Shown in pieces: positions 37,662 to 56,379 of a DNA stretch of 64,000 nt. Position 1 is the stretch's first letter, and every line of letters begins with the position of its first letter. The DNA is from an uncultured Solirubrobacterales bacterium (lineage in GTDB: Bacteria > Actinomycetota > Thermoleophilia > Solirubrobacterales > 70-9): the NCBI GenBank assembly GCA_963708115.1, contig CAVPRX010000002.1:452092-516091 (forward strand). Direction: 5' to 3'. Made by a program: the position numbers and the translations under genes. Below the pieces are notes generated by a model. It did no database searches, was not told the DNA's origin, and saw only the letters and a list, made by a program, of their open reading frames with translations.

Positions 37662-37717
37662 TTTGATTTGCTTTGGCTCTACGGGCCGCTGTAATGGAGT
37701 GGCAAGGAGGAGCGAGC

Positions 37718-38578
37718 ATGGAAGCCAAGGCGATCGACCCGATCGACTTCCGCGAAGCGCAACACAAGCACTGGGACTCTGCTGCGGTGGGATGGAAGGA
37801 GTGGAGCGAGTTCAATGACAGAGCAGACGGGCGCATCAGCGAGCGGCTGGTGGAGCTCGCTGACGTGCAGTCGGGAAGCCGGGTCCTGGACGTCGCCGCC
37901 GGCTATGGCGAGCCGGCGCTTACCGCCGCGCGCAAGGCCGGCCCGGAGGGCCGCGTTGTGGCCACGGACATCTCCGCCGAGATGCTCGCGTTCGGGCGTG
38001 AACGCGCGGCGGCGGTCGGCTTGGGCACCGTGGAGTTCATTGAGTCGGACGCCTCCAGCCTCGATTTTCCGCAGGCGAGCTTCGACGCCGCCGTCTCGCG
38101 CTGGGGAATCATCTTCGAGCCTGACGCAGAGGCCGCCGCGGGGCGCATCCGAGGCTTCCTCAAGCCGGGCGCGCGGATGGCGATCAGCTCGTGGGGCGAG
38201 CCCGATCAGGTCCCCTTCCTCTCGATTCCGATGAGGACGACGATGGAGCGGCTGGATGTACCCCCGCCCCCGGCCGGAACGCCCGGCCCCCTCTCCCGGC
38301 CCACCCCCGCTGCAATCGGCGGGCTGCTCGAAGGAGGCGGCTTCTCGAAGGTCTCCGTGGAGCGGGACGAGGTCACCTTCGAGTTCGACTCCCCGGAGCA
38401 TTTCACCGCTTACATCAGGGCGATCTCCGCCCCGATCCGGGCGATGATCGAGCAGCACGCAGGCGAGACCCAAGAAGAGGCCTGGGCCGCGATCACGCAG
38501 GCCGCAGCGGATGCAGGGGGCCGCTCGAAGCCGCTGAGCTTCTCGAACGTGGTGCTGCTCGCCTCGGCAACCGCCTAG
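37718..38578 (+). CDS. Class I SAM-dependent methyltransferase
   Basis: VLDVAAGYGEPA (motif I) and ARMAISSWG. ATG 37718 preferred; earlier in-frame starts at 37673 and 37694 are possible. Confidence 0.75.
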   Translation: MEAKAIDPIDFREAQHKHWDSAAVGWKEWSEFNDRADGRISERLVELADVQSGSRVLDVAAGYGEPALTAARKAGPEGRVVATDISAEMLAFGRERAAAVGLGTVEFIESDASSLDFPQASFDAAVSRWGIIFEPDAEAAAGRIRGFLKPGARMAISSWGEPDQVPFLSIPMRTTMERLDVPPPPAGTPGPLSRPTPAAIGGLLEGGGFSKVSVERDEVTFEFDSPEHFTAYIRAISAPIRAMIEQHAGETQEEAWAAITQAAADAGGRSKPLSFSNVVLLASATA

Positions 38579-38687
38579 CGCCCCAGGGTGGTCGCGAGCA
38601 ACATTGCGCGCCCCGCTATACGAGTGGCGTAGGCCTTACGTCCAGACCGGTTGACGTTTTTCAAGCCTTGATCGTCGGCGCCGAGTA

Positions 38688-40331: not shown

Positions 40332-40344
40332 GGGGACGCTGACC

Positions 40345-41694
40345 ATGCACAACTGCTGCAAGAACTACACGCGCTCCCAGCTGTTGCGCTCGGCGGCGGC
40401 CGAAGCCGGCAAAGGTCTGCCGGCGATCGAGGCGGGCATGCCCGAGCCCGCCGGGACCGGCCTCTCGAGGCGCACCTTTCTCTCCTGGAGCGCCGGCCTG
40501 GCAATGGCTGTCTACGGCGCCTCAAAGATCCCCCTGGCCGCCTTTGAGGAGGGGATCGCCCAGGCGGCCCAGACCGACAAGATCCTCGTCTCGGTCTTCT
40601 TCGACGGCGGCATCGACGCGCTCAGCGTGCTGGCGCCGACCGGCGACCCGCGCTACTCGCAGCTGCGGCCGAACTTGGCGCTCGCCCCCGACGCGGGGAC
40701 GGAATTCGCCGAGGACCCGCGCCTGCGCTGGCATCCCTCGGCCGCCGGACTGGCCACGCTGCACGAAGAGGGCAAGGTCAGCGCCTTCCCGGCGATCGGC
40801 TACGACCACCCGGATCAGTCGCACTTCACCTCGCGCCACTACTACGAGATCGGCGAGCTCGACGTCGGTTTTCACACCGGCTGGCTGGGCCGCTACATCG
40901 ACGACGTCGGCGACGACGACAACCCCCTGCAGGGGCTCTCGATGGACGGCTCCCTGTCGCCGATGATCGCCACCGCGAACCGACCGGTGGCGGCGATCGA
41001 CAGCGTCGACGGCTACGACCTATGGTCGCCCGTCAGCCAGCCGATCTCCGACGAGATGTTCAAGAGCTTCGCCCGCTTCGGCTCGCTGCCCTCGGACTCC
41101 CCGGGCCTGGCGCAGGTGCGGCGCGCCACGGCCCAGACCGACAAGCTGCGCACCGACCTGGGCGGGATCGGCGGCTTCACGAGCCCGATCACGTATCCCG
41201 ACACGTACTTCTCTCACAAGCTCGCCGGCCTCGCCGCCTTCATCGCCGCCGGCCTGCCGATGCGGGTGGTGACGATCCGGGCCTCGGGCGGCTACGACAC
41301 CCACGCTGAGGAGGCCGAAGACCTCTCGCGGGGCCTGCGCGAGACCTGCGAGGGAGTGCTCGCCTTCCAGCGCGACCTCGAAGCACGCGGTCTCGAGGAC
41401 CGGGTCATGGTGGAGATGTGGAGCGAGTTCGGGCGCCGCCCGGAGGAGAACGCCTCGCTCGGCACCGACCACGGCGCCGCCGGCTGCGCCTTCGTCGTCG
41501 GCTCCAAAGCCAAGGGGGAGATGGTCGGCGAGTTCCCCGGCCTGGGGCAGCTCGACCAAAACGAAAACGTCCGGGTGACCAGCGACTTCCGGGCGATGTA
41601 CTGCTCTCTGCTCGAGCAGTGGCTGGGGCACGACGCCGCGTCGATCATTCCCGGGGCGTCCTCGTTCGAACGGCCGACCCTGGTGAAGCCGTGA
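40345..41694 (+). CDS. DUF1501 domain protein (sulfatase-like fold) with a Tat signal
   Basis: SRRTFLSWSAGLAMAVYGA, GGIDALS and GGYDTHA...GTDHG motifs. This is the usual partner of DUF1800. Confidence 0.75.
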   Translation: MHNCCKNYTRSQLLRSAAAEAGKGLPAIEAGMPEPAGTGLSRRTFLSWSAGLAMAVYGASKIPLAAFEEGIAQAAQTDKILVSVFFDGGIDALSVLAPTGDPRYSQLRPNLALAPDAGTEFAEDPRLRWHPSAAGLATLHEEGKVSAFPAIGYDHPDQSHFTSRHYYEIGELDVGFHTGWLGRYIDDVGDDDNPLQGLSMDGSLSPMIATANRPVAAIDSVDGYDLWSPVSQPISDEMFKSFARFGSLPSDSPGLAQVRRATAQTDKLRTDLGGIGGFTSPITYPDTYFSHKLAGLAAFIAAGLPMRVVTIRASGGYDTHAEEAEDLSRGLRETCEGVLAFQRDLEARGLEDRVMVEMWSEFGRRPEENASLGTDHGAAGCAFVVGSKAKGEMVGEFPGLGQLDQNENVRVTSDFRAMYCSLLEQWLGHDAASIIPGASSFERPTLVKP

Positions 41695-42302
41695 GGAGGG
41701 CGGCTGCGAGGTCGAGCTGTCTGGGACTGGTCGGTTTTGCGGTGGCGGCGATGGCGATGGCGAGCGGCCCGATGGCCGGCGCCGACGCGGTGGCGCCGGA
41801 AGGCTGCACCTGGCAGCGGCACGCCAAGCGCATGATCAAGCACGTAAAGCGACATGGTCGCGTGCAACGGGTCAGGCGAGTGAAGCACTGGTGGACCTGC
41901 GACAGCCAGCCTGCTGTGTCCGCGCTCCCAGCACCCCCACTGGCATCGCCGCCTCCGTCAACCAACGCCCTCCCGCCCGAAGAACCGCAACCGGAAGGCA
42001 CCGCCTCCCATCTCGGCGTCAAAGCAGTCGAGTGGAGCTACACCCTCTCCCGTCCCGCAGTGACCGCCGGCACAGTGATCGTCGAGCTCAACAACCAGGG
42101 CGAAGACAACCACAATCTCAAGCTCCAGCGCGAAGGCAGTGGGGATCCGCCACTGGTCGTTCCAGAAGCGGCGCCCGACGAACACACGACCGCCAGCTTC
42201 AACCTGCCCGCCGGCACCTACCGCCTCTACTGCAGCCTGTTCGAACACGACGCAAAAGGCATGCACGCGACGTTGGTGGTCGGCACGACCGAATCCGGCT
42301 AG
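41691..42302 (+). CDS. Secreted cupredoxin-like protein
   Basis: GTGA overlap with the DUF1501 gene. Has a signal peptide. The C-terminus (NQGEDNHNLKL...YRLYCSLFEHDAKGMHATLVV) carries a His...Cys...His...Met blue-copper ligand pattern. Confidence 0.6.
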   Translation: MRRAAARSSCLGLVGFAVAAMAMASGPMAGADAVAPEGCTWQRHAKRMIKHVKRHGRVQRVRRVKHWWTCDSQPAVSALPAPPLASPPPSTNALPPEEPQPEGTASHLGVKAVEWSYTLSRPAVTAGTVIVELNNQGEDNHNLKLQREGSGDPPLVVPEAAPDEHTTASFNLPAGTYRLYCSLFEHDAKGMHATLVVGTTESG

Positions 42303-42321
42303 GCGGATTTGCGCTGCCGGC

Positions 42322-42663
42322 TCACCTTGAAGGGGGCGACTGCTCGGCGTCCCTCCGCACGATCACGGTCCTGCCGTCGTCGAGGCGATAGACCATGCCG
42401 AGCGGCTTGCCGTGTCCCACGATTCGCTGCCCGGGACGCAGCTTCACCGGTTTGACGTGCTGGTCTCGGTCGGCCACCACGGGCGCAGCCTGCGACCGGG
42501 CTTTTGGCTTGTCGGTGAGGGACGAGGTGAGGTGAAGCGAGGAGAGCGCGGCGAGCAGGAATGCGACCGAGAGCACGATTCCCAGGTCGAAGAGGTTGAC
42601 GAGGCCGTCGAGCGGGTCGCCTGCCCGGTCCTCTCGGCTGCGTGCCCGCGGCGTGACCTTCAC
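42322..42663 (-). CDS. DUF2149-like small membrane protein (ExbD-position partner of the ExbB-like channel)
   Basis: GTGA overlap with the upstream MotA/ExbB-like gene. Single TM helix DGLVNLFDLGIVLSVAFLLAAL followed by a beta-rich tail. Family call is by recall. Confidence 0.55.
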   Translation of the reverse strand: MKVTPRARSREDRAGDPLDGLVNLFDLGIVLSVAFLLAALSSLHLTSSLTDKPKARSQAAPVVADRDQHVKPVKLRPGQRIVGHGKPLGMVYRLDDGRTVIVRRDAEQSPPSR

Positions 42664-43319
42664 GGGGCGACGGCCCAGTGGCTGGGGGGGACGGGGACGC
42701 CGTTGCCGGCCGGAGCGCTGAGGCTGGCGGCCACGTACTCGACGTCGGAGTAGTCCTGGGCGTAGAGGCGATCGCGGACGAGGGAGATCGCGAAGGCGAA
42801 GGCGCCGATCATCAGCCCGGCGACGGTGACGCTGAAGGCGACCCGGAGGTTCTCGGTGAGGGTGGCGACGTCGCCGTCGGCGAGGCCGGCGAGAGCCGGC
42901 GAGAGTGGGATCAAGGTCCCCATCAGACCCAGCGCCGGGCCCATGCGGACGAGGATGCGGGTGCGCTCGAGGCGGCGCAGCGAGAGGTAGTCGTACTCGG
43001 CCAGGCGCTTGGCGAGGCGGGCCTCGGAATGCGGCCGGCCGCACTGCTCGACGATCCCGGCGAGCACATCTTCCATTCGCTGGTTCCAGGCGAACGGCAG
43101 CAGCGCCGCCAGCGCCTCCGCCGGCATCCCGGCGGCGAGCCGGCCCCGGCACTCCTCGACCGCGCGCTCCAGGCCCCAGAGGCTGCGGTGGCGCCGTCGC
43201 CGCACCTCCACCAGCAGGGCGCCGGCTTCGACGACGACGACCCCCAACGCCGCCACGGTGAGGATCAGGACCGGGACGAGCAGGGCGTTGGCGACGTCGA
43301 AGAGGAGCTGCTCGATCAT
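42660..43319 (-). CDS. MotA/TolQ/ExbB proton-channel family protein
   Basis: 219 aa. RMGPALGLMGTLIPLSPAL...ENLRVAFSVTVAGLMIGAFAF is the ExbB/TolQ C-terminal signature. Confidence 0.75.
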   Translation of the reverse strand: MIEQLLFDVANALLVPVLILTVAALGVVVVEAGALLVEVRRRRHRSLWGLERAVEECRGRLAAGMPAEALAALLPFAWNQRMEDVLAGIVEQCGRPHSEARLAKRLAEYDYLSLRRLERTRILVRMGPALGLMGTLIPLSPALAGLADGDVATLTENLRVAFSVTVAGLMIGAFAFAISLVRDRLYAQDYSDVEYVAASLSAPAGNGVPVPPSHWAVAP

Positions 43320-44470
43320 TGGAGCAGGCTCCTGGCCTCGATCAGGGCGCCGGTGCCGAGCAGGCTGAGGGTGGCGAGCAGGCCCCAGGCGGCGCCGGGG
43401 ATCCCGCCGCTGCCGCCATCGTCCTCGAGCTGGCCGCTGCGCGCGGCCGCTTGCTTCGCCGTGACCGGGGGAGCGGTGGCGTTGGCCCTGACCAGCTCTC
43501 CGACGACGCGTTCGCCGCGGGCCGGTCGTTGCTCGGGCTCGGGTGCGGGCGGGGCGGTCGTAGTGGGCTCAGCAGCGGGAGGGCTGGCGGCACTGCCGGC
43601 GCCGGGTCGGGATCGGTCGGCGGCGCCGTGGTCAGGTGCGCCCACGTTGTCGTTGTAGCCGCCGCCCTTGCGGTCCGGGCCGGCCAACGGCGCCCCGACT
43701 TGAATCGTCACCACCGCCGAGGCACCGGTGTCATCGCCGTCGCTGGTGACGCCGAGGACGACGTCGTAGCTGCCGCGCCTGGCGAAGCTGTGCGTGGCCT
43801 CGGCACCCGCGGCCGAGCTGCCGTCATCGAAGTACCAGGAGTAGGTCAGCTGCTCGCCGGACCCGGCTTGCTCGATGACGGCGTTGAAGTGGACTGGACG
43901 GCCGGAGCGGGTTCGCAGCGTCGAAGCCCTGGCCCGAATCCTCAGCCGTGAGCCTTTGTGCAGGACGATCGAGATCCCTTGGGGGGCCTCGAAGCAATCG
44001 CTTGCGTTGAGGTCGTCCGACCCGGCGCTCGGTCGCAGGAAGCCGGTGCCGGAGGCGGTCGCGTAGACGACCGGCGGGCCGTCGGCGAAGGCGCCGGGGT
44101 CGAGCGCCTGGTCACGGCTCAGCAGCACCGCGCCACCGGCCGGACGCTGGACTTCCAGGTAGGAGAAGCCGTAGGGGTCGGCGCCGGCGGCGTCGAGGAG
44201 GGCAGCCAGGGAGAAGCCGCTGAGCGCCCGCGTGCTCTCGCCGCTGGACGAGCGCACAGCGTAGGTCCGGTCGAGCACGTCCTCAGAGCCGGCCAGCGCG
44301 GCGAGCGAGAGCGTCTGCACGGTGCCGCCGGGGGAGGTGACGGTGACCTGGGCGACGTCGGCGCGGACCGCCGTCGCCCAGGGCGAGGCCAGGGCCGCCG
44401 ATGCGACCAGCGAGAACGTGGCCAGCACGGCCGCGGTCAGCCTGCGGTCGAGAACGAGACCGTTGCGCAT
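43316..44470 (-). CDS. Secreted PKD-domain protein with a C-terminal membrane anchor
   Basis: Has a signal peptide, a PKD-like block (LTYSWYFDDGSSAAGAEATHSFARRGSYDVVLGVTSDGD), a Pro-rich spacer and a terminal TM helix. ATGA overlap with the ExbB-like gene. Confidence 0.65.
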   Translation of the reverse strand: MRNGLVLDRRLTAAVLATFSLVASAALASPWATAVRADVAQVTVTSPGGTVQTLSLAALAGSEDVLDRTYAVRSSSGESTRALSGFSLAALLDAAGADPYGFSYLEVQRPAGGAVLLSRDQALDPGAFADGPPVVYATASGTGFLRPSAGSDDLNASDCFEAPQGISIVLHKGSRLRIRARASTLRTRSGRPVHFNAVIEQAGSGEQLTYSWYFDDGSSAAGAEATHSFARRGSYDVVLGVTSDGDDTGASAVVTIQVGAPLAGPDRKGGGYNDNVGAPDHGAADRSRPGAGSAASPPAAEPTTTAPPAPEPEQRPARGERVVGELVRANATAPPVTAKQAAARSGQLEDDGGSGGIPGAAWGLLATLSLLGTGALIEARSLLQ

Positions 44471-45681
44471 CCGAAGTCGGTGCCGGGGGCGTAGAAGCCG
44501 GCGAAGGTCGAGGCTGCGGTGCCGGAGGGGATCGCACCCGGCACCCGTTCGTAGGTGAAGCTGTTGCCGCTGACGCCGATCGATCCGGCGCGGGAGAGGT
44601 CGAGGTTGATCAGGACCTGCCGCTGGGGCGCTCCGCCCGACTCAGAGATCGAGAAGATCGCCCGCGACCCGGCTCCGGCAATCTCGATTTCCGGTTCCGC
44701 CGTGGTCAGGTCGATGCCGTGACCGCTGTAGTGGAAGCGGACGGCGCCGCCGAAGCGCACCAGGGCGCTGTCGTCGGCGGGGTCGGCAAGATTGGCGCCG
44801 GCGTCGTGCCAGCCTGTGGCGAAGGGGAAGTGGAAGCCGTAGCTGAGCGCCGCCGAGGTGCCCGGTGCCAGTAGCGGCGGGTCTGCGGTGGCGCCGCCCG
44901 AGACGCTCGTCCCCTCACCGGTGCCGATGTAGCGGATGAAGGATTCGCGTACCTGCCAGTCGATCGTGGCAGCGGTGATGTCCGTTGCCGCCGGTGGCCG
45001 AGTAGCCACCGGGAGTGGATCTTCTGGGGCGGGACCGCCGCCGCTGGGCAGCGGGCAGGCGGTCGATTTCTGGGCGCCGCCAGGGGCGGAGGGGCCACCG
45101 GCGGCGGGAGCGCCGCTGTCGCCGCGGGTCAGTCCGGCGAGATCGGTGGAGAGGGTGCCGAAGCGGCGAGTCGGCAGCGGCTCCAGCTCCAGTCGCCGGG
45201 AGATCGCACGGGCGCCGGCGCGGGTCAGCTTCAGCCGCAGGCCGTCGAGGCGGACCCTCCCGGTTGCCGCGCTGATCTCGCGCTTGCCGCCGCGCAGGAC
45301 CTTGAAGAGGTCGATCTCTTCGCCGTCCAGCCTGGCCTCGACCAGCGCCCGCTCGCCGAGCAAGAGGCTGAGTCTCGTCAAGCGCATCCTGCCGCCACCC
45401 GTCGCCTCCAGTGAGATTCCGCCGCGGTGGCGCAGCAGGGTCGTGCTCGAACCGGCGAGGCCGGCGGCAACCGGCAGGGAGACCCTGCGGTTGCCGCCGC
45501 TCGCGGGTTTGAGCGGGACGACGCGAACACCCTGCTCTCGCAGGGCATTCGCCGCCGGGCCGTCCAGCGTCAGCTTCGTCTCGCCGCTGGCGCCGAGCGC
45601 CGGGGCGGGGAGAGCGATCGCGGCGGCGACGATAGCCACCGTCGCAAAGGCGCCGAGTCGGCTGGCCGGCCCCCGTCTCAT
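44437..45681 (-). CDS. HtaA-domain haem-binding surface protein 1
   Basis: ATG 45681 (ATGA overlap with the upstream gene) gives a signal peptide. IDWQVRESFIRYIG...FHFPF...GAVRFHYSGHGIDL matches the HtaA conserved-region pattern. The rest of the 857-aa ORF is an artefact. Confidence 0.65.
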   Translation of the reverse strand: MRRGPASRLGAFATVAIVAAAIALPAPALGASGETKLTLDGPAANALREQGVRVVPLKPASGGNRRVSLPVAAGLAGSSTTLLRHRGGISLEATGGGRMRLTRLSLLLGERALVEARLDGEEIDLFKVLRGGKREISAATGRVRLDGLRLKLTRAGARAISRRLELEPLPTRRFGTLSTDLAGLTRGDSGAPAAGGPSAPGGAQKSTACPLPSGGGPAPEDPLPVATRPPAATDITAATIDWQVRESFIRYIGTGEGTSVSGGATADPPLLAPGTSAALSYGFHFPFATGWHDAGANLADPADDSALVRFGGAVRFHYSGHGIDLTTAEPEIEIAGAGSRAIFSISESGGAPQRQVLINLDLSRAGSIGVSGNSFTYERVPGAIPSGTAASTFAGFYAPGTDFGCATVSFSTAG

Positions 45682-46868
45682 TCGGTGTCCACCGAGATCG
45701 TCACCGGGTCGAGCTGCTGACCGTCCGGGTAGCCGGCGCCGAACGCCGCGGCTCCGGCTGCGGTCAGTTTTGCCGGGATAGCGCTCCAGGTGATCGTCTT
45801 GTCGCCGGCCGAGTAGGTCGGGGAGACGGCGCTGACGTCCAGAGTGGCGAAGTCGACGCCGGCGGTCGGCACTGCCGGCACGTCGGTGCAGCTCATCCCC
45901 GCCGGGGTGTCGATGTCGTATATCGAGTCGAGATCGATCCCCGAGTTGGCGCCGTCGATCGTCAGCTCCAGGTCGGAGAGCTTGACTTCGACGATGCAGT
46001 GGCCGGGCTTGGCGAATTTGACGCTGCCCGCCGTGTGCAGGGTGAGCCGGTCGGCGTTGCCGCCGAGCCCCTTCTCGTAGCTGCCGCTCGCGGCCGGGAA
46101 GCTGAAGAAGGCGCTCGATTCCGAGAGCGTCCCGGTTGAGGTGGCGCCTTCGGCAGTGGTGATCGTGCCAACCGAGCCGGGGCCGAAGTTGCCGAGCACG
46201 TAGCTGCGCCAGCTGGCCAGCACACCCCAATCGGCGCCCCCGGAGACGATCGCCTTGGCGGCGGCGTAGGGGGGCTTTAGCGGTTCTGGTGCCGGGGCGG
46301 CCGGGGCGGTGGCGCCGGTCCGCGCGGCGAGCCAGACCATGCCGACGCCCCGCTTGGTCAGGTTCCGCTCCAGACCGAGCTTCCGCTCGAGGGCGCTCGC
46401 CGCCTCGCTGGTGAGCTGCAGCTTGCCTTCCTCGAGGCCGACCGAGTCGGCGCTGACGATCGGTGCCGCGCCTAGCTTGAAGACGGGGATCTCGCTCTCG
46501 CCCAGCTTGCCAACCAGCGTCCCGGCGGCGAGGTCGAAGCGAATCCCGCTCAGCGCCATCGTCTTCTTGCCGCGCTTGAAGTTGAGGCCGGCGCTGCTGG
46601 TTGCCGAGGGCTGAGCGCCGGGGTCGAGCGCGGCGATCGGCAGGGTCAGCCTGTCTGCCTGACCGGTTGCGCCGGTGCCGGGGAGCAGCTTCACGCCCTG
46701 GCCGCTGAGCGTGCGTCCCTTGCTGTGCTTGGCGACGACGATTACGGCCTCGCCTTGACCGCTGGCGGCGGCGGCCGGGGCTGCCAGGGCGGTGGCCATC
46801 GCTGCCGTGGCGGCGAGCGCGAGCAGGCTGGCGACCAGCCGGCTCCTTCTCGGTTCGTTTGAGCTCAT
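45678..46868 (-). CDS. HtaA-domain haem-binding surface protein 2
   Basis: Has a signal peptide. The HtaA-like block is GGADWGVLASWRSYVLG...FFSFP...GSVKFAKPGHCI. Its N-terminal domain is paralogous to that of protein 1. Confidence 0.65.
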   Translation of the reverse strand: MSSNEPRRSRLVASLLALAATAAMATALAAPAAAASGQGEAVIVVAKHSKGRTLSGQGVKLLPGTGATGQADRLTLPIAALDPGAQPSATSSAGLNFKRGKKTMALSGIRFDLAAGTLVGKLGESEIPVFKLGAAPIVSADSVGLEEGKLQLTSEAASALERKLGLERNLTKRGVGMVWLAARTGATAPAAPAPEPLKPPYAAAKAIVSGGADWGVLASWRSYVLGNFGPGSVGTITTAEGATSTGTLSESSAFFSFPAASGSYEKGLGGNADRLTLHTAGSVKFAKPGHCIVEVKLSDLELTIDGANSGIDLDSIYDIDTPAGMSCTDVPAVPTAGVDFATLDVSAVSPTYSAGDKTITWSAIPAKLTAAGAAAFGAGYPDGQQLDPVTISVDTE

Positions 46869-46930
46869 TCTCGAAAGGTCTCCTTGTTTCTAGGCGCACC
46901 GAGTGCGCTGGACTCGACGGTGACCATGAA

Positions 46931-46983
46931 TTAGGGCACCCTAAGAAATCCACACTAACAAAGTAGGAATTAGGGTGCCCTAA
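46931..46983 (-). promoter_or_regulatory. Two 14-bp palindromic iron-box-like operators upstream of the htaA operon
   Basis: TTAGGGCACCCTAA at 46931-46944 and TTAGGGTGCCCTAA at 46970-46983. The same motif recurs at 49933, 49947 and 50312. The arms resemble DtxR/IdeR TTAGG..CCTAA half-sites. Confidence 0.55.
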
Positions 46984-47767
46984 CGCCTGTCTCGCGAAGC
47001 CAGGCGACATGCAGGGCGGTACGGCCCTCGTGCGCGGTCAGCCGCGCGTCGGCGCCCCAGACGGAGCCCAGCAGCTCGGCGCTCAAGACCTCCTCGGCTG
47101 CCCCGGTCGCGACGGTGCGGCCCGCCGAGACGACCACGACGGTGTCGGCGACCGCCGCCGCCAGGGCCAGGTCGTGGACGACCAGGAGCACCGCCAGGCC
47201 TTCGGCGGCCAGGTCGCGAAGCAGTCCGGCGACGCCGATCGTGGCGCCGAGATCGAGTTGGGAGGTCGGCTCGTCGGCGATCAAGACGGGCGCCTCCTGC
47301 GCCAGCCCGATCGCGATCTGCACTCGCTGCATCTCTCCCCCCGAGAGCGTCGTCAGCGCCCGCTCGGCGAAGCGGGTGACGCGGGCCCGCTCCATCGCTC
47401 GCTCGATCCCCTCGCGATCGGCGGCAGTGAGGCGTCGCAGCGGTCGCAGCCGCGCCGAGCGGCCGATCGTCACCGCTTCCCGCACCGTGATCCCCGCCGG
47501 CACCGGCATCCGCTGTGGCACGAAGGCGCGCAGCCCGGCCAGCTCGCGCCCGCGCATATCGCCGACCTCACGCCCGTCCCAACGAGCGCTGCCGGCGGTG
47601 AGCCGCTGCAGCCCGGAGATGGCCCGCACCAGCGTCGACTTGCCCGCCCCGTTGGGCCCGACCACGGCGACCAGGCGGCCGCGCTCGAGGCGCAGGTCGG
47701 CCCCGCGCAGGATCGGCACGCCGCCGATCTCGACTTCGATTCCCTGGGCATCCAGCAGTGGCGCCAT
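46970..47767 (-). CDS. hmuV: Haem/iron-siderophore ABC transporter ATP-binding protein
   Basis: Walker A GPNGAGKST, signature LSGGEMQRV and Walker B LIADEP. TGATG overlap with the permease. Confidence 0.8.
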   Translation of the reverse strand: MAPLLDAQGIEVEIGGVPILRGADLRLERGRLVAVVGPNGAGKSTLVRAISGLQRLTAGSARWDGREVGDMRGRELAGLRAFVPQRMPVPAGITVREAVTIGRSARLRPLRRLTAADREGIERAMERARVTRFAERALTTLSGGEMQRVQIAIGLAQEAPVLIADEPTSQLDLGATIGVAGLLRDLAAEGLAVLLVVHDLALAAAVADTVVVVSAGRTVATGAAEEVLSAELLGSVWGADARLTAHEGRTALHVAWLRETGVRAP

Positions 47768-49608
47768 CAGACCGCCTTGCGCAGCAGCCAGAGGAAGAGG
47801 GGGACGCCGAGCAGAACCATGAAGGGGCCGACGGGCATCTCGATCGGGGCCCGCAGGGTGCGGGCGAGGGTGTCGCCGGCGGCGAGCAGAGCGGCGCCGC
47901 CGATCGCCGAGGCCGGCACGACGAAGGTGTGGCTGGAGCTGCCGCCGGCCATGCGGACGACGTGGGGCACGACCAAGCCGAGGAAGCCGAGCAGGCCGGC
48001 GATCGCCGCCGAGGCGGCCGCCAGCAGCGCCGCCGCGATCCCGGCCCCGAGCCGGATCAGCTGCGGGCGGGAGCCGAGCGAGGCGGCGACGTCGTCGCCC
48101 AGGGCCAGCCGGTCCAGCGGCCGGATCAAGCAGGCGGCGATGAGGAAGCCGACGGCGAAGTAGGGCCAGATCGTCTCCATCTCCTGCCAACCGCTGGAGG
48201 TGAGGCCGCCGGCGATGAAGAAGATCGCCGAGGGCGCCCGCTCCGGGTAGGCGGCGAGCAGCCCGGTCGTCCCCGCCGTGAACAACGAGAGCATCGCGAT
48301 CCCGGCCAGGATCACCTTGCCGGTGCTGCCGCGGTTGCGCCCCGACCAGGCGAAAGCGAAGACCAGCGTCGCGGCCAGCAGGCCGAAGAAGAGGGCGCCG
48401 ACCGGCAGCAGCGCGATCGAGCCGGGGAAGAGGATGATGATCAGGATTGCCCCGAAGCCGGCGCCGCCGGTGACCCCGATCACGTCGGGAGAGGCGAGCG
48501 GGTTGGCCAGCGCCCCCTGCAGGATCGCCCCGGCGATGCCGAGCGCGGCACCGACGATCAGCGCCTCGACCGTGCGCGGCAGCCGCAGCGCCTCGATGAT
48601 CTGTTGGTCGGTGCCGCCGCCGCCCTTGCCGAGCAGGATGTCGATCACCTCGCCCGCCGGCACCTTGACCGCACCCAGCGCCAGCGAAGCCACGATGGCG
48701 AGGGCGAGGGCGGCGAGCAGCGCCGCGAAGACCAGGGCACGGCGCGCCACCTGGGTCAGTTCTTCAGGTAGGCGCGGCGGACCTTGCGGATCGTGCGCGG
48801 CGATGTCGGTCCCCGCCTGCAGCAGCGAGTTGTCGACCGAGACGTAGACCTGGCCGGTCCGCGCCGCCGTGGTGCTCGCCCAGGCTGGGTTGTCGCGCAG
48901 GTATTCGGTGAGGCTGGGGATGTCGTCGGCGCTGGCGTGCGGGACGGCGATGATGATGTCGGGGTCTTCGGCGACCACGACTTCGTCGGAGATCCGCTCG
49001 AAGCCCGAGTTGGACTTGACGCCGCCGGTGAGCAGCTCGCCGCCGGCCTTGCTGACGATGTCGCCACCCCAGCTGTTGGGCAGGAAGGTGAAGGGAGTGC
49101 GGCCGACGCCGAGGATCAGCATCACCTTCGGGTGTTTGTCGATCCCTTTGGTAGCGGCCTCGACCTGCTTGCGCATCGACTGCAACAGATCGCGGGCGTA
49201 GTGCTTGCGGCCGACGATCGTGCCGATCTTGAAGGTGTCGGCGAGGGCGCCGTCGACCGAGCGCGGGTCGTTGAGGACGACGTCGATCCCCAGGCTCTTC
49301 ATCGCCTGGTTTCCCTTGGCCCAGGTCCGGGAGGAGAAGACGAGATCGGGATCGAGCGAGGCGAGCTGCTCGAGGTTGGGCCCGTTCGGGTGCGAAAGCG
49401 GCAGCGTGGTGACCCCCTCCAGCTTCGGCGAGAAGCGTTCGGCGCCACCCAGCGTTTCGCCGATCCCGACCGGCGTCACCCCGAGCTTTGCCAGCGTGTT
49501 GGCGGCGAACGGCGTCAGCGCGACGATCCGCTTTGGGGGCGCCGCCTGACTCGTAGCCGGCAGGCAGAGCGCCACCAGGAGCAGGACGAGGCCGAGTGGC
49601 TTCCTCAC
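47767..49608 (-). CDS. Haem/iron ABC transporter: periplasmic-binding-protein domain (HmuT-like) fused as read to the FecCD-family permease (HmuU-like)
   Basis: GTG 49608 (GTGA overlap with the isdG-like gene) gives a signal peptide and then RIVALTPFAANTLAKLG. From about 48750 there are ten TM helices with FecCD motifs. An alternative frame ends the binding protein at 48756. See finding. Confidence 0.7.
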   Translation of the reverse strand: MRKPLGLVLLLVALCLPATSQAAPPKRIVALTPFAANTLAKLGVTPVGIGETLGGAERFSPKLEGVTTLPLSHPNGPNLEQLASLDPDLVFSSRTWAKGNQAMKSLGIDVVLNDPRSVDGALADTFKIGTIVGRKHYARDLLQSMRKQVEAATKGIDKHPKVMLILGVGRTPFTFLPNSWGGDIVSKAGGELLTGGVKSNSGFERISDEVVVAEDPDIIIAVPHASADDIPSLTEYLRDNPAWASTTAARTGQVYVSVDNSLLQAGTDIAAHDPQGPPRLPEELTQVARRALVFAALLAALALAIVASLALGAVKVPAGEVIDILLGKGGGGTDQQIIEALRLPRTVEALIVGAALGIAGAILQGALANPLASPDVIGVTGGAGFGAILIIILFPGSIALLPVGALFFGLLAATLVFAFAWSGRNRGSTGKVILAGIAMLSLFTAGTTGLLAAYPERAPSAIFFIAGGLTSSGWQEMETIWPYFAVGFLIAACLIRPLDRLALGDDVAASLGSRPQLIRLGAGIAAALLAAASAAIAGLLGFLGLVVPHVVRMAGGSSSHTFVVPASAIGGAALLAAGDTLARTLRAPIEMPVGPFMVLLGVPLFLWLLRKAV

Positions 49609-49904
49609 GCCGGCACCCTCGTGTCGATCACGTCGTAGTTGCGAACCTCGCTGCCGTGGGCGAGCTCGCCGTCGGCGTGTCGGTGGCTCATCTTGAAGAG
49701 GTCGCTGTTGACCCACTCCCGGAAGGCGTCCTCGTTCTCCCAGCGGCTCAGCACCACGTACTCGCCATCGCGGTCGCGCCGCAGCAGCTCAAAGCCGGCG
49801 AACCCCTCGGCTTTGTGGACGTGGCTCTCGCGCTCCAGAAACGCCCGCTCGAACGCCTCCCGTCGCTCCTCGTGTACATGGACAACGTTCATCACCAGAT
49901 ACAA
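49605..49904 (-). CDS. IsdG/MhuD-like haem-degrading monooxygenase (ABM family)
   Basis: 99 aa with NVVHV....R..FE..F......V....GF..FELL, the ABM pattern. It is the first gene of the hmu operon. Confidence 0.6.
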   Translation of the reverse strand: MYLVMNVVHVHEERREAFERAFLERESHVHKAEGFAGFELLRRDRDGEYVVLSRWENEDAFREWVNSDLFKMSHRHADGELAHGSEVRNYDVIDTRVPA

Positions 49905-49932
49905 GGGCCCGCTCCTTTCGAAAAGGGGCCAC

Positions 49933-49960
49933 TTAGGGCGCCCTAATTAGGTTGCCCTAA
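49933..49960 (-). promoter_or_regulatory. Tandem iron-box-like palindromes upstream of the isdG-hmuTUV operon
   Basis: TTAGGGCGCCCTAA at 49933-49946, immediately followed by TTAGGTTGCCCTAA at 49947-49960. Confidence 0.55.
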
Positions 49961-50018
49961 GAAAGGTAGCCGAAGACGGCCGGGCAGGTCGCCCAGGTCA
50001 CTCGGGTCGCCGGCAGCG

Positions 50019-50309
50019 CTACTTGCCCAGCGCGGCGCGAGCTCGCTTGGCGAGCTTGACCGTTGCCATGCGAAGGCCCTCGGGGCCCTCGATCGGCTCG
50101 CCGTAGGAAACGCGGACGGGAGCCTCGCCGGCGGCGGATTGGATCACCAGGTCGAGGCCAAGGCGGTCGGCGTCGACGCAGCGTGCGGCAGTCGCCTGGG
50201 GCGCGCCGCCGAGCGCGCGCGCCATGTCCAGCAGGGCGTCGGCGTGGTCATCGTTGAGATGGTCGATGGCGTGCGCGGCGCCACGGCTCACTGGGTCGTC
50301 CTGCTTCAT
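50019..50309 (-). CDS. DUF2470-like haem-utilisation protein
   Basis: 96 aa. AIDHLNDDHADALLDMAR is typical of DUF2470 (the HugZ C-terminal-like domain). Sits in a haem gene context. Confidence 0.55.
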   Translation of the reverse strand: MKQDDPVSRGAAHAIDHLNDDHADALLDMARALGGAPQATAARCVDADRLGLDLVIQSAAGEAPVRVSYGEPIEGPEGLRMATVKLAKRARAALGK

Positions 50310-50311
50310 GG

Positions 50312-50325
50312 TTAGGGCACCCTAA
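50312..50325 (-). promoter_or_regulatory. Iron-box-like palindrome abutting the DUF2470 start codon
   Basis: TTAGGGCACCCTAA begins 2 nt upstream of ATG 50309. Confidence 0.5.
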
Positions 50326-50385
50326 TGGATAGGTCTGTCTGCCTGCGGCTCGCGGGGTGGCTGCGCCTTTGGGAACATCCGCCAC

Positions 50386-52840: not shown

Positions 52841-53302
52841 TCAATCCTCACCTGATCCATCGCCCGTTTTATGAGCAAGCACCACGGAGCGGATGAAGCC
52901 TCCCCGACGATTTGTACGGCGTCGATGGCAATTGGCGCAGACGACCTCGCACTTCTCGATCTCGGCGAGGATGTCTTTCCAGGGCCGTTCGCGCATGCCC
53001 TTGCCGATGCCGAACCGTTTTTCTCCCAGGTGGTCGAACTCCAAGACGAGCGGATCGCCCTCCCCGCAATCCACGCATGGATGCTCGCGAAAGGAGACGA
53101 GATAGGCGGTGCGCTCGGCGACGATTCTCTTCGTGCGCCGACGGGCGGAATCGATGTAGCGCTGCTTGTTGCTGGAGTAGTGCTCGTGCTTGTAGGCGGT
53201 TCGGCAGGACCGGCAGTAGTTGTCACGCTGTCCACGGGCTTTTCGCCGCCAAGCGAATTCGTCCAGCGATTTCTTCTCCTTGCAGCGTCCACATAGCCTC
53301 AT
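52841..53302 (-). CDS. Stand-alone HNH endonuclease
   Basis: CGRC...CRSC zinc ribbon plus HPCVDCGE...LEFDH...CANCHRRR, an HNH core. G+C is lower than the surroundings. ATG 53302. Confidence 0.7.
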   Translation of the reverse strand: MRLCGRCKEKKSLDEFAWRRKARGQRDNYCRSCRTAYKHEHYSSNKQRYIDSARRRTKRIVAERTAYLVSFREHPCVDCGEGDPLVLEFDHLGEKRFGIGKGMRERPWKDILAEIEKCEVVCANCHRRRTNRRGGFIRSVVLAHKTGDGSGED

Positions 53303-53316
53303 GCGCGGCAACCTAT

Positions 53317-53340
53317 CGATACGAACAGACGTTCGTATCG
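53317..53340 (-). promoter_or_regulatory. LexA (SOS) box within a 24-bp perfect palindrome, 15-20 nt upstream of the HNH gene
   Basis: CGATACGAAC-AGAC-GTTCGTATCG. The core CGAACAGACGTTCG fits GAAC-N4-GTTC. Confidence 0.55.
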
Positions 53341-53366
53341 CGCCCTCCTGGCGGCGGATTCTGGTA

Positions 53367-53437
53367 AGCGGCGGACGGGAATTGAACCCGCATCATCGCC
53401 TTGGAAGGGCGAGGCTCTACCGTTGAGCTACCACCGC
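53367..53437 (-). tRNA. tRNA-Gly(TCC)
   Basis: Acceptor GCGGTGG/CCGCCGC. Anticodon arm TCGCC-CTTCCAA-GGCGA. T-arm GCGGG-TTCAATT-CCCGT. Discriminator U. Confidence 0.85.
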
Positions 53438-53513
53438 GTGCGCGAGTCGCCTTCATATGGGATCCGCGTCGCCTAGGTAGTTTGCCCGAATCCGTCAGAA
53501 TGCGGAGCAGCCA

Positions 53514-53587
53514 CGGGGAGTGGCGCAGTCTGGTAGCGCACTCGGCTGGGGGCCGAGCGGTCGCAGGTTCAAATCCTGTCTCCCCGA
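53514..53587 (+). tRNA. tRNA-Pro(GGG)
   Basis: Acceptor CGGGGAG/CTCCCCG. Anticodon arm CTCGG-CTGGGGG-CCGAG. T-arm GCAGG-TTCAAAT-CCTGT. Confidence 0.85.
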
Positions 53588-53730
53588 TATTCCGATATTT
53601 CAGAGCCGGCTTGGGAAGCGGCTTGAGGCCCAAGCGGCTTGATGAAGCCGTGCGGAGTTGCCGCCTCGAGACCCGCTAGGGTCAGTCCGGAGCGGAGCTA
53701 CGCCTGACCCTTCGCCCCGGAGAACTGGAC

Positions 53731-54750
53731 GTGACCGCTGCGAACCGCAACCTCCAAGACGCCAAGAAGGCCAAGGAGGACGAGTTCTACACGCAGCTCG
53801 GGGACATCGAGCGCGAGTTGCGTAACTACAAGTCCCATTTCAAGGGCAAGGTGGTCTATTGCAACTGCGACGACCCGCGCGTGAGCAACTTCTTCCACTA
53901 CTTTTCCTACAACTTCGAAAAGCTGGGGTTGAAGAAGCTCATCACGACGTGCTACCGGAGCCAGCGAGCCGACGCCTTCAGTCAGAACGACTCCGAGCAG
54001 GCGATCTACCTGCAGTACGACGGTGACGGGAATCACAACAACGTTCCCGATCCCGAGGAGATTGGCGTCAAGGCGTTGAAGGGCGATGGTGACTTCCGCA
54101 GCGCGGAGAGCGTCGATCTTCTCAAGCAGGCAGACATCGTTGTGACTAATCCGCCGTTCTCGATGTTCCGCGAGTTCGTGGTGCAGCTCATCGCCTTCGA
54201 GAAGAACTTCCTCATCGTCGGCAACCAGAACGCGATCACCTACAAGGAGATTTTCCAGCTAATCCAGAATAACGAGGTCTGGGTTGGCGTAAATAGTGGC
54301 GACATGGAGTTTCGGGTCCCGGACTACTACCCGCCAAGGAAGACTCGGTATTGGGAAGTTGAAGGAAAGAAGTGGCGCAGCCTCGGTAATGCCTGTTGGT
54401 TTACCAACCTTGACTTCTCGAAGCGCCACGAGGACCTGATCCTCTTCAAGGCATATAACCCCACCGACTACCCCACCTATGCGAATTACGACGGCATCGA
54501 GGTAGGGAAGACGGTCGATATTCCAGTGGACTACGACGGCCCCATGGGAGTGCCGATCACGTTTCTCAACAAGTACAACCCCGATCAGTTCGAGATCCTG
54601 GGCAACAGCCGCGAACTTGGAGCGCCTATGGCGAGCATCGCAAAGAAGGACGCATATCAGCAGGGCGGCCCTAGGTTCTACCTCCCCAACGGCGACGGCA
54701 CCTACCGCCGCTTGTACGACAGGATCGTCATTAGGAACAAGGGCCTATGA
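53731..54750 (+). CDS. EcoRI-family N6-adenine DNA methyltransferase
   Basis: VVTNPPFS (motif IV) and the N-terminal AKKAKEDEFYTQL.DIE.EL..Y..HFKGKVVYCNCDDP pattern of the EcoRI-methylase family. About 339 aa. Markedly lower G+C. Confidence 0.75.
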   Translation: MTAANRNLQDAKKAKEDEFYTQLGDIERELRNYKSHFKGKVVYCNCDDPRVSNFFHYFSYNFEKLGLKKLITTCYRSQRADAFSQNDSEQAIYLQYDGDGNHNNVPDPEEIGVKALKGDGDFRSAESVDLLKQADIVVTNPPFSMFREFVVQLIAFEKNFLIVGNQNAITYKEIFQLIQNNEVWVGVNSGDMEFRVPDYYPPRKTRYWEVEGKKWRSLGNACWFTNLDFSKRHEDLILFKAYNPTDYPTYANYDGIEVGKTVDIPVDYDGPMGVPITFLNKYNPDQFEILGNSRELGAPMASIAKKDAYQQGGPRFYLPNGDGTYRRLYDRIVIRNKGL

Positions 54751-55829
54751 AGATCGAGCTAAAGGAGATGAAGGTCCGCGATCTCACCGAGGGCTATCAG
54801 GACAACGACGAGGCAGGCGTCGTCGGCTACTCGGGCAAGTTGGACATTCGCCCGCCGTATCAGCGTGAGTTCATCTACAAGGACAAGCAGCGGGACGCGG
54901 TCATCGACACGATCACCCGGGACTTCCCCCTCAATGTCATGTACTGGGCAGTGCGGGATGGCGGCGACTATGAGGTCATCGATGGGCAGCAGCGCACGAT
55001 CTCTGTATGTCAGTACGTAGAGGGAGATTTTGCCTTCGAGGGTCGCTACTTCCACAACCTTCAGTTGGATGAGCAGCAGCGCATCCTCGACTACAAGCTG
55101 ATGGTCTACCTATGCAGCGGGACTGACAGCGAGAAGCTCGAGTGGTTCAAAACCATCAACATCGCGGGGGAGAAACTCACCGACCAGGAGCTGCGCAACG
55201 CGGTGTATGCGGGGTCGTGGGTGTCTGACGCCAAGCGCTACTTCAGTAAGAACGGCTGCCCCGCCTACAGCATCGGCAGCGATTACATGACCGGCACCCC
55301 CATCCGTCAGCACTACTTGGAGACGGTGATCGAGTGGATCAACGGCGGTGACGTCGAGGGCTACATGGCCAAGCAGCAGCACAAGCCCAATGCGAACGAG
55401 CTTTGGCTCTACTTTCAGAATGTGATGGCGTGGGTGACAGCCAGCTTCCCAAAGCACCGCAAGGAGATGAAGACGGTCCATTGGGGCGAGCTCTTCAACG
55501 AGTTTGAGGGCACGGAGTTGGACTCGGCGATGCTCGAGGAGCAGGTCGCGACGCTGATGGCCGACGAGGACGTAACCAACAAGCGGGGCATTTACTCCTA
55601 TGTGCTCAATGGGCAGGAGAAGCACTTGAACATCAGGGCGTTCAGCCCGAACCAGAAGCGTGAGGCCTATGAGCGTCAAGAAGGTCTTTGCCCCGTATGT
55701 GGAAAGCGCTTCGAGCTCGAGGAGATGGAGGGCGACCACATCACGCCCTGGCATGACGGTGGCAAGACGGAGGCTGCGAACTGTCAGATGTTGTGTCGCG
55801 ACGACAACCGCAGGAAGGGCGGCGTCTAG
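54747..55829 (+). CDS. DUF262 (GmrS/ParB-like) domain fused to a C-terminal HNH nuclease
   Basis: ATGA overlap with the methylase. IRPPYQREF and VIDGQQRTISV are the DUF262 DGQQR motif. The C-terminal CPVCGK...GDHITPWHDGGKTEAANCQMLCRDDNRRKG is an HNH domain. Confidence 0.75.
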   Translation: MKIELKEMKVRDLTEGYQDNDEAGVVGYSGKLDIRPPYQREFIYKDKQRDAVIDTITRDFPLNVMYWAVRDGGDYEVIDGQQRTISVCQYVEGDFAFEGRYFHNLQLDEQQRILDYKLMVYLCSGTDSEKLEWFKTINIAGEKLTDQELRNAVYAGSWVSDAKRYFSKNGCPAYSIGSDYMTGTPIRQHYLETVIEWINGGDVEGYMAKQQHKPNANELWLYFQNVMAWVTASFPKHRKEMKTVHWGELFNEFEGTELDSAMLEEQVATLMADEDVTNKRGIYSYVLNGQEKHLNIRAFSPNQKREAYERQEGLCPVCGKRFELEEMEGDHITPWHDGGKTEAANCQMLCRDDNRRKGGV

Positions 55830-55878
55830 CGCCTCGGCCTCTTGACTTCCGCGCAGACGAGGTGGAAGGTAGGCCGAG

Positions 55879-56379
55879 ATGAGCAGCGCAGAGACGAGTG
55901 GCGAAGGCACCGCCGGTACCCCGCCGGTCAGCGCCGGTGAGGTGAAGCTCGAGGTAGTGGTCCTGCCGGTTTCAGATGTCGATCGGGCGAAGCGCTTCTA
56001 CGAGGGATTGGGGTGGCGCCTCGACGCCGACTTGGCGGTCGAGGATGGATACCGGGTGGTGCAGCTGACGCCGCCGGGGTCCGCGTGCTCGATCATCTTC
56101 GGCGAGGGGGTCGCGTCCGCGCCGCCAGGCTCCTCCGAGGGGCTGCAGCTCTCGGTCTATGACATCGACGCGGCCCGCGCCGACCTCGTCGCGCGCGGGG
56201 TCGAGGTCAGCGAGACGTTCCACGATGTGACGGGGATATTCCACCATGCCGGTCCCGACGGGCGTGTCAGCGGGCCGGCGCCGGGGCATGCCGACTATGG
56301 CTCGTTCGTAGCCTTCAGCGATCCGGACGGCAACGGCTGGCTGCTCCAGGAGATCAAGGCCCGGCTTCCGGGCCGTTGA
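55879..56379 (+). CDS. VOC (glyoxalase/bleomycin-resistance) family protein
   Basis: LEVVVLPVSDVDRAKRFYEGLGW...FSDPDGNGWLLQE. Confidence 0.75.
   Translation: MSSAETSGEGTAGTPPVSAGEVKLEVVVLPVSDVDRAKRFYEGLGWRLDADLAVEDGYRVVQLTPPGSACSIIFGEGVASAPPGSSEGLQLSVYDIDAARADLVARGVEVSETFHDVTGIFHHAGPDGRVSGPAPGHADYGSFVAFSDPDGNGWLLQEIKARLPGR

Follow-up and report, generated by a model that had tools for sequence, protein, structure and literature searches.

A tRNA-associated two-gene cassette of a Solirubrobacterales bacterium, in which an EcoRI-family methylase precedes a DUF262-HNH nuclease, as a probable Type II-kind restriction-modification system

We have analysed a 64,000-nucleotide stretch of DNA from an uncultured Solirubrobacterales bacterium (GenBank assembly GCA_963708115.1, contig CAVPRX010000002.1, positions 452,092 to 516,091 of the forward strand; hereafter the window), in which a chromosomal cassette of two overlapping genes lies 3' of a tRNA-Pro(GGG) gene. 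This cassette would be a two-gene restriction-modification (R-M) system of the Type II kind, formed by an EcoRI-family N6-adenine methyltransferase (the methylase) and by an endonuclease in which a DUF262 domain is joined to an HNH domain (the nuclease), and cleavage by the latter would be blocked by methylation. We give this reading, which is drawn from sequence comparison, a probability of about 0.8, because the two genes are linked in nearly all related loci and diverge together, a single polypeptide containing both proteins exists, the catalytic residues are invariant, and the PADLOC Type II profiles recognise the two proteins. The features of the locus, in window positions, are listed here; L091 and L088 are two other loci carrying the cassette.

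53367-53437, minus strand: tRNA-Gly(TCC), called by ARAGORN; conserved flank, outside the cassette.
53514-53587, plus strand: tRNA-Pro(GGG), called by ARAGORN; its 3' end is the point where synteny breaks.
53655-53730, plus strand: cassette leader of ~75 nt, delimited by blastn identity with the L091 and L088 copies and by alignment.
53731-54750, plus strand: predicted EcoRI-family N6-adenine methyltransferase, 339 aa, GTG start (open reading frame (ORF) and PF13651).
54148-54159, plus strand: catalytic NPPF motif of the methylase, aa 140-143.
54747-54750, plus strand: ATGA overlap of the methylase stop and the nuclease start, seen in the junction sequence.
54747-55829, plus strand: DUF262-HNH nuclease, 360 aa (ORF, Pfam GmrSD_N and HNH).
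54747-55157, plus strand: ParB/Srx-like (DUF262/GmrS) alpha/beta domain of the nuclease, aa 1 to ~137 (Pfam GmrSD_N, AlphaFold2 (AF2) model, Foldseek).
54981-54995, plus strand: DGQQR motif of the nuclease, aa 79-83.
55158-55646, plus strand: central all-helical region of the nuclease, aa ~138-300 (AF2 secondary structure).
55647-55829, plus strand: zinc-ribbon HNH (beta-beta-alpha-Me) domain of the nuclease, aa 301-360, plus the stop codon (Pfam HNH, PDB 4h9d).

An earlier reading of the window (hereafter the original prediction) had placed two genes with an ATGA overlap 3' of tRNA-Pro(GGG), and this layout is confirmed by ARAGORN, by the ORFs and by the junction sequence. A gap of 143 nt separates the tRNA from the methylase ORF. 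At the junction, GGCCTATGAAGATC, the TGA of the methylase and the ATG of the nuclease share the ATGA, and this overlap suggests that the two genes may be translationally coupled. The leader contains a Shine-Dalgarno GGAG ~8 nt 5' of the methylase GTG, and the blocks kept in its alignment are CCGCCTCGAGACCCGCTAG and CCGGAGAACTGGACGTG. No sigma-70 consensus promoter was found upstream of the cassette, in a scan that does not cover actinobacterial promoters.

The upstream gene had been proposed to encode an N6-adenine methyltransferase of the EcoRI type with an NPPF motif, and the assignment holds over the full length of the protein: Pfam EcoRI_methylase PF13651 matches it over 1-345/345 (E 6e-136), and the sequence DIVVTNPPFS, which includes the NPPF at aa 140-143, is invariant among 45 homologues. 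We predict that it is a gamma-class N6-adenine DNA methyltransferase of the EcoRI family. A sequence search of the PDB found no solved relative of the methylase, and NCBIfam gave nothing for the two proteins except weak Cas9/IscB HNH matches.

At least 8000 relatives of the nuclease are present in a 90%-clustered database, the best 120 of them being ~360 aa long and 75-100% identical to it, and when 1.84 billion 50%-identity representatives were searched exhaustively, the family comprised 533 clusters at E <= 1e-30, nearly all of 360-410 aa and aligned end to end. A set of 80 related genome loci (L001-L080) covers Actinomycetota, Bacteroidota, Campylobacterota, Pseudomonadota, Spirochaetota, Acidobacteriota, Patescibacteria and some archaea. 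Co-occurrence of the two genes, which the original prediction had put forward as a check, is the rule in this set: an EcoRI-family methylase adjoins the nuclease in 78/80 loci, almost always directly upstream and on the same strand, and the nuclease mostly starts 0-30 nt past the end of the methylase match. One exception (L052) is a locus cut by a contig end, and the other (L074) is discussed below. Furthermore, the identities of methylase and nuclease co-vary across loci (Spearman 0.58, p 9e-8), and a metagenomic protein of 688 aa, P0159, contains EcoRI_methylase, GmrSD_N and HNH in one polypeptide; this could be a natural methylase-nuclease fusion or a frameshift artefact at the overlapping stop/start junction. 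The pair is also present on plasmids, including cryptic plasmids of 7-10 kb from lactobacilli and enterococci, where the names given by the NCBI annotation pipeline PGAP are 'adenine-specific methyltransferase EcoRI family protein' and 'DUF262 domain-containing protein'. It is carried by Flavobacterium phage laban6-1 as well, and on Gordonia pGKT1 the cassette adjoins RelE/PhD.

Some loci have additional genes within or beside the pair. In three alphaproteobacterial/Rickettsiales loci from metagenome-assembled genomes (L022, at 5134-5997, L034 and L037) a nearly identical Bro-N-domain gene encoding 272-287 aa stands between methylase and nuclease, and an XRE-type helix-turn-helix gene lies upstream of the L022 methylase. 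An ORF6N/Rha-type gene is found just before the nuclease of L074. These genes could be regulators or hitch-hiking phage genes.

With respect to the nuclease, the original prediction of a DUF262 (DGQQR) domain fused to an HNH domain is borne out by Pfam, which matches GmrSD_N/DUF262 (E 6.5e-19) and HNH PF01844 at aa 315-358 (E 1.8e-13). No Pfam match to the DUF1524 (GmrD-type) nuclease domain was obtained, the C-terminus being the PF01844 HNH. YQR at aa 38-40 and DGQQR at aa 79-83 are predicted nucleoside triphosphate (NTP)-binding motifs. It had been considered that the HNH catalytic residues might prove degenerate, but D330, H331, N345 and N354 are invariant in 80/80 homologues, as are Q39, R40 and D79-G-Q-Q-R83, and the zinc-ribbon cysteines C315, C318, C346 and C350 (CxxC...CxxxC) are kept in 79-80/80; these four cysteines, together with D330, H331, N345 and N354, are the key residues of the HNH domain.

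The structural model agrees with this division into domains. Using a diverse alignment (a model from a shallow alignment, with a predicted local distance difference test score (pLDDT) of 71, was discarded), AF2 gave a model with pLDDT 91.7 and predicted template modelling score (pTM) 0.68, consisting of an alpha/beta N-domain, an all-helical middle with helices spanning aa 146-288 (pLDDT mostly >85) and a beta-beta-alpha HNH end. The top Foldseek matches in the PDB were ParB-CTPgammaS (7bnr), Noc and BrxU (7p9k), with further matches to sulfiredoxin, SspE (weak), the Gme HNH (4h9d), McrA and the Cas9 HNH; all of them are domain-level, none reaches E <= 1e-3, and no solved structure in this search shares the whole architecture. 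The Gme HNH also matches the nuclease by sequence, at E 1.7e-4. In the viral library the best Foldseek matches, with a template modelling score (TM) of ~0.5, were GmrSD_N-domain proteins of giant viruses and phages of similar length. The central helical region has no Pfam match and no significant PDB fold match, and it contains many invariant residues (N138, Q147, E148, N151, W229); we consider that target recognition probably resides there. In ParB, sulfiredoxin and the GmrSD family, the YQR and DGQQR motifs of the ParB/Srx fold bind nucleotide phosphates (PMC4619093; PMC12707154), from which we infer that nucleotides could gate or stimulate cleavage by the nuclease.

Existing resources already place the pair among Type II systems. 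PADLOC, whose use the original prediction had recommended, matches the methylase over its full length with MTase_II (Type II methyltransferase, E 7e-125) and the nuclease over aa 1-357/360 with the REase_II (restriction endonuclease) profile PDLC03418 (profile 1-369/372, E 1.3e-138), so that a standard defence annotation would label the cassette 'RM type II'; the matches of NsnA, PD-T4-2_A and HEC-05 to the nuclease are confined to the DUF262 core. The proposal of a defence module of undescribed logic finds no support here. The alternative proposal of an atypical R-M pair fares better, since the linkage in 78/80 loci and the co-divergence argue for an R-M pair, but 'atypical' was an overstatement in view of PDLC03418, of the 533 clusters and of BanLI in REBASE. 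In fact, REBASE lists as a Type II restriction endonuclease a DUF262 protein, BanLI/Ban8145ORF124P, from Bifidobacterium animalis (PMC13091528; PMC3990576). With regard to the suggestion that the architecture might be listed there as a characterised system, BanLI comes close. Apart from the BanLI lead, the literature searched contains no paper on the pairing of DUF262-HNH with an EcoRI-type methylase, and the Menshen, GmrSD-phylogenomics and R-M review papers treat only modification-sensing DUF262 proteins. Another lead, TdeIII/TDE0911 of Treponema denticola, was dropped, as TdeIII would be an enzyme of a different kind with the site GGNCC.

The relationship to EcoRI provides a guess for the target site. 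Identity between M.EcoRI and the methylases that accompany DUF262-HNH nucleases is 43-69% (median 52%), and a neighbour-joining tree places M.EcoRI within their group, beside the methylases of L012 and L034 (96/100 bootstraps for the nesting and 62/100 for the specific sister group with these two). Because M.EcoRI falls inside this clade, a GAATTC-like site is the best guess, and the target of the clade, including the window enzyme, is most likely GAATTC or very close to it. R.EcoRI, by contrast, has a PD-(D/E)XK fold, unlike the ParB-like plus HNH nuclease, and BLASTP found no similarity between the two (E 24). The simplest reading would be that one methylase family is served by either of two unrelated nucleases, R.EcoRI or DUF262-HNH. 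An attempt to read the recognition site from palindrome avoidance, using maximal-order Markov observed/expected (O/E) ratios for all 4- and 6-bp palindromes in 883 kb of sequence from the carrier genome, was dropped, as it gave no signal for GAATTC or AATT. In the supplements of a methylome survey (Blow et al. 2016), none of the strains considered here appears, enzymes with the site RAATTY are of the D12 class and two GAATTC methylases predicted by REBASE are 'Not Detected'.

According to the R-M reading, the methylase would be translated first and would mark a short target in the host DNA, most likely GAATTC or a site much like it, and the nuclease would then be made by translational coupling through the ATGA overlap. 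Its central helical region would read the target sequence, its HNH centre would cut DNA without the methyl mark, cleavage being blocked by methylation, and the DUF262 domain may gate or stimulate cleavage by nucleotide binding, as in GmrSD, BrxU and SspE. Given the invariant QR and DGQQR, it is a possibility that the nuclease departs from the Mg2+-only, NTP-free cleavage of Type II enzymes. A more specific proposal, which we make tentatively and regard as possible rather than probable, is that the nuclease is a modification-blocked, sequence-specific enzyme gated by NTP binding or hydrolysis in its ParB/Srx domain (for instance through a clamp or dimer switch dependent on cytidine or guanosine triphosphate), which would represent an NTP-dependent 'Type II-like' class and would be the commonest partner of the EcoRI-methylase family, with R.EcoRI as a rare replacement. 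The nuclease would then be an isoschizomer or neoschizomer of EcoRI without structural relationship to it, distributed over most bacterial phyla.

Base composition had suggested a tRNA-flanked low-G+C island. The cassette has indeed a G+C of 0.573, compared with a window mean of 0.686 (standard deviation 0.028; 2.1 kb windows in 100-nt steps over the 64 kb), and it is the 2.1 kb with the lowest G+C in the whole window, which confirms the lower G+C first noticed by eye. However, G+C at third codon positions (GC3) is 0.81 and 0.84 for the two genes, within the range of the neighbouring housekeeping genes (0.81-0.91), and the deficit is located in codon positions 1 and 2. As GC3 is host-like, the low G+C is no sign of a recent arrival and the acquisition would be old; the dip appears to reflect the conserved composition of the two proteins, rich in Lys, Asn, Tyr and Phe. 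The tRNA-flanked island itself is supported by a break of synteny exactly at the 3' end of tRNA-Pro; the low G+C with host-like GC3 does not denote recent transfer.

This break is seen by comparison with close relatives. The named top matches of the neighbouring carboxyltransferase, 87-94% identical, are all from Solirubrobacterales, and two close relatives without the cassette (L094 and L095) have in common with the window the carboxyltransferase, a hydrolase and the tRNA-Gly/tRNA-Pro pair at 86-91% DNA identity (88-89% for tRNA-Gly(TCC)). Homology to both by blastn ends at window 53589/53590, the 3' end of tRNA-Pro, beyond which each of them carries different genes; because it stops there, the 3' side of tRNA-Pro(GGG) is a variable integration hotspot. 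In agreement with the original prediction, no integrase was found among the ORFs of 52.8-58.3 kb, nor did the repeat search find an att-like direct repeat of the tRNA-Pro 3' end. A related genome (L087) has a syntenic copy of the cassette, in the order tRNA-Gly, tRNA-Pro, methylase, nuclease and Pyr_redox; its DNA is 87% identical to that of the window in the cassette and 81% in the flanking Pyr_redox gene, which argues for purifying selection, and the cassette thus appears to be an old resident. In L088-L090, where the nuclease is 91% identical, the cassette is again 3' of tRNA-Pro(GGG), in the opposite orientation. In a Solirubrobacterales-like contig (L091, 4079-9719), where the nuclease is 85% identical, it lies within the conserved dcw cell-division cluster, between mraY and murD, together with a metallo-beta-lactamase-fold gene, two unknown genes and a PIN/PhD toxin-antitoxin pair. 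Blastn identity of the leader starts at 53655 with L091 and at 53716 with L088, and the DNA similarity between contexts is limited to 53655-55830, that is, to the leader and the two genes, ending at the nuclease stop codon. As judged from these alignments, the unit common to the different contexts is a bare cassette of ~2.2 kb comprising leader, methylase and nuclease.

Other genes around these tRNAs also vary. An ORF at 52841-53311 (minus strand, 156 aa, Cys-rich) encodes a free-standing phage-type HNH endonuclease (PHROG 2255, E 1e-32) without any Pfam or NCBIfam match above threshold; its G+C (0.60) and GC3 (0.72) are below those of host genes. It stands where L094 and L095 carry a pyrroloquinoline quinone (PQQ) beta-propeller gene, a 69%-identical copy is found between the two tRNA genes in L087, and it would seem to be a small mobile gene in its own right, located at the same tRNA hotspot. 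Downstream, a glyoxalase/bleomycin-resistance-family gene (55879-56379, plus strand) lies between the nuclease and Pyr_redox; it is absent from L087, in which Pyr_redox comes directly after the nuclease. Further upstream, positions 37669-50342 are an extra ~12.7 kb directly 3' of tRNA-Trp when compared with L094/L095, which have the carboxyltransferase gene directly after a tRNA-Leu(TAG)/tRNA-Trp(CCA) pair. This segment encodes an S-adenosylmethionine (SAM) methyltransferase, DUF1800/DUF1501, PKD- and HtaA-domain proteins and others, its G+C is host-like and no integrase was seen in it. Because L096 has DUF1800/DUF1501 at the same place, it is a second variable region beside a tRNA. Finally, ARAGORN called a tRNA-Val(GAC) at 12830-12923 (minus strand) with 94 nt, which is unusually long for a bacterial tRNA-Val, and the call for the tRNA-Pro(GGG) of L088 has 96 nt; both may be erroneous calls, or else tRNAs containing insertions.

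Several points weigh against an R-M system with a GAATTC-like target. In 71/71 loci the methylase has diverged further than the nuclease (mean identities to the window proteins 59% and 69%, respectively), which is the opposite of the usual Type II pattern. GAATTC is not avoided in the 883 kb of carrier sequence (O/E 0.78, rank 30/64; AATT 0.94). If BanLI is a family member, it reads a different, asymmetric site, so that specificity in the wider family is not fixed. The PADLOC REase_II profile may be partly built from REBASE predictions, and the literature searched gives no biochemical proof of a close member cutting unmethylated DNA. To the best of our knowledge, moreover, every characterised DUF262 nuclease with a solved structure (BrxU, SspE, GmrSD) senses modified DNA. 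In L074, the nuclease is intact and solitary, without an EcoRI-family methylase within 6 kb on either side, and it adjoins a C5-methylase/NgoFVII-type R-M system. A solitary nuclease inside another R-M locus is compatible with a modification-dependent Type IV enzyme of the GmrSD/BrxU kind, whose neighbouring methylase would be independent or would mark self DNA and be ignored by the nuclease; GmrSD, BrxU and SspE are characterised by a DUF262 N-domain with DGQQR, and BrxU 7p9k is among the top fold matches. We consider this very improbable, as Type IV enzymes need no methylase and here one is immediately upstream in 78/80 loci, often overlapping, and even joined to the nuclease in P0159, possibly a frameshift artefact. 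Besides, the nuclease has a classical zinc-ribbon HNH (PF01844) and no DUF1524 match, it has 360 aa vs the ~560-580 residues of BrxU and SspE, its full-length TM to BrxU is 0.26, and its full-length PADLOC match is REase_II, with no Type IV endonuclease profile among the PADLOC matches.

Two other explanations were considered. The cassette might be mainly a selfish addiction or mobility module rather than a defence against phages; its loss would kill through residual nuclease, and it possibly spreads in a homing-like manner, the HNH nuclease breaking DNA that lacks the cassette. In molecular terms this overlaps with the R-M reading, the selective rationale being the sole difference, and addiction and defence are not mutually exclusive in Type II R-M systems. 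The bare 2.2 kb unit found at 85-91% protein identity in unrelated contexts without integrase or repeats would fit, as would the neighbouring toxin-antitoxin genes (PIN/PhD for the L091 copy in the dcw cluster, RelE/PhD for the pGKT1 copy), the frequency of the cassette on very small plasmids and the extraordinary conservation of the protein sequence across phyla. We nevertheless find it unlikely as the main role, since the cassette is old and stably syntenic in its lineage (L087), its GC3 is ameliorated, and the restriction of phage by BanLI is measurable, though weak. Still less can be said for an inactive relic, one or both genes being no longer expressed or functional. Such a relic could account for the lack of a sigma-70-like promoter upstream, although actinobacterial promoters lie outside that scan, and it has parallels in the two undetected GAATTC methylases of this type predicted by REBASE and in the B. 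choerinum plasmid pBC described below, whose nuclease gene is split by the insertion of a resistance gene. However, both ORFs of the window are intact and full length, every catalytic residue is present, and the cassette is better conserved towards L087 than the flanking Pyr_redox gene (87% vs 81%), pointing to purifying selection; we hold the relic explanation to be highly improbable.

If the R-M reading is right, the common assumption that DUF262/GmrS nucleases are always modification-dependent would have to be corrected, since the NTP module stands here beside a methylase, in a presumably modification-blocked HNH enzyme. The usual partner of the EcoRI methylase clade would be a DUF262-HNH nuclease and not R.EcoRI, a natural case of nuclease replacement on a conserved methylase. 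If a nucleotide cofactor were needed, the definition of Type II would need a footnote. The impact on annotation is small, because the pair is already called as a Type II R-M system by standard tools and exists in thousands of copies. As a biochemical target the family is an easy one, with commercial M.EcoRI and EcoRI as ready controls.

Among known systems, the HNH-type Type II enzymes KpnI, Hpy99I, PacI and HpyAV have a beta-beta-alpha-Me/HNH domain, often with zinc Cys pairs, and a methylase partner; we know of none among them with a ParB/Srx (DUF262) NTP-binding domain. GmrSD, BrxU and SspE resemble the nuclease in having an N-terminal DUF262 ParB/Srx domain with DGQQR, helices and a C-terminal His-Me finger nuclease, but theirs is a DUF1524 nuclease whereas a zinc-ribbon PF01844 HNH is present here, and the chains of BrxU and SspE are longer, as said above. 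They also occur alone or linked to BREX/Ssp, with modified DNA as their substrate, whereas the nuclease described here is almost always paired with a methylase, and the full-length fold match is weak (TM 0.26 or less across GmrSD/BrxU/SspE).

BanLI, from B. animalis subsp. lactis, comprises an adenine methylase of 41.7 kDa followed by a restriction endonuclease of ~43.5 kDa and is of low G+C (PMC3990576). By single-molecule real-time (SMRT) sequencing its methylation is RTC(m6A)GG, and when cloned in E. coli it restricts phage P1 ~10-fold (PMC3990576). It resembles the cassette in the order of adenine methylase and DUF262 endonuclease and in a G+C below that of the host, and differs from it in that the RTCAGG site is asymmetric and methylated on one strand and in that BanLI adjoins an integrase, which the cassette does not. 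A possible link between both is found in Bifidobacterium choerinum plasmid pBC (NZ_CP018045.1; L092+L093), which encodes an EcoRI-family methylase, of a size matching the BanLI methylase, and a nuclease homologue, each 40% identical to its counterpart in the window. The nuclease gene of pBC is split: the N-terminal 107 residues come right after the intact methylase, and residues 104-358, annotated as 'HNH endonuclease signature motif containing protein', ~2.4 kb further on, with a cmx chloramphenicol-efflux gene between the halves. We predict that this nuclease was inactivated by the cmx insertion while the methylase was kept. Judged by its annotation, by the protein sizes and by the pBC homologue, BanLI is a probable distant member of the family, and one that is partly characterised.

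In the EcoRI system itself, M.EcoRI and the methylase of the window are true members of one family, sharing 51% identity over 312 residues (E 6e-106). The 'type-2 restriction enzyme EcoRI' is encoded beside M.EcoRI on a 4 kb plasmid of E. coli, with the nuclease gene preceding the methylase gene, the reverse of the order found in the cassette; both are compact two-gene Type II cassettes of small mobile replicons.

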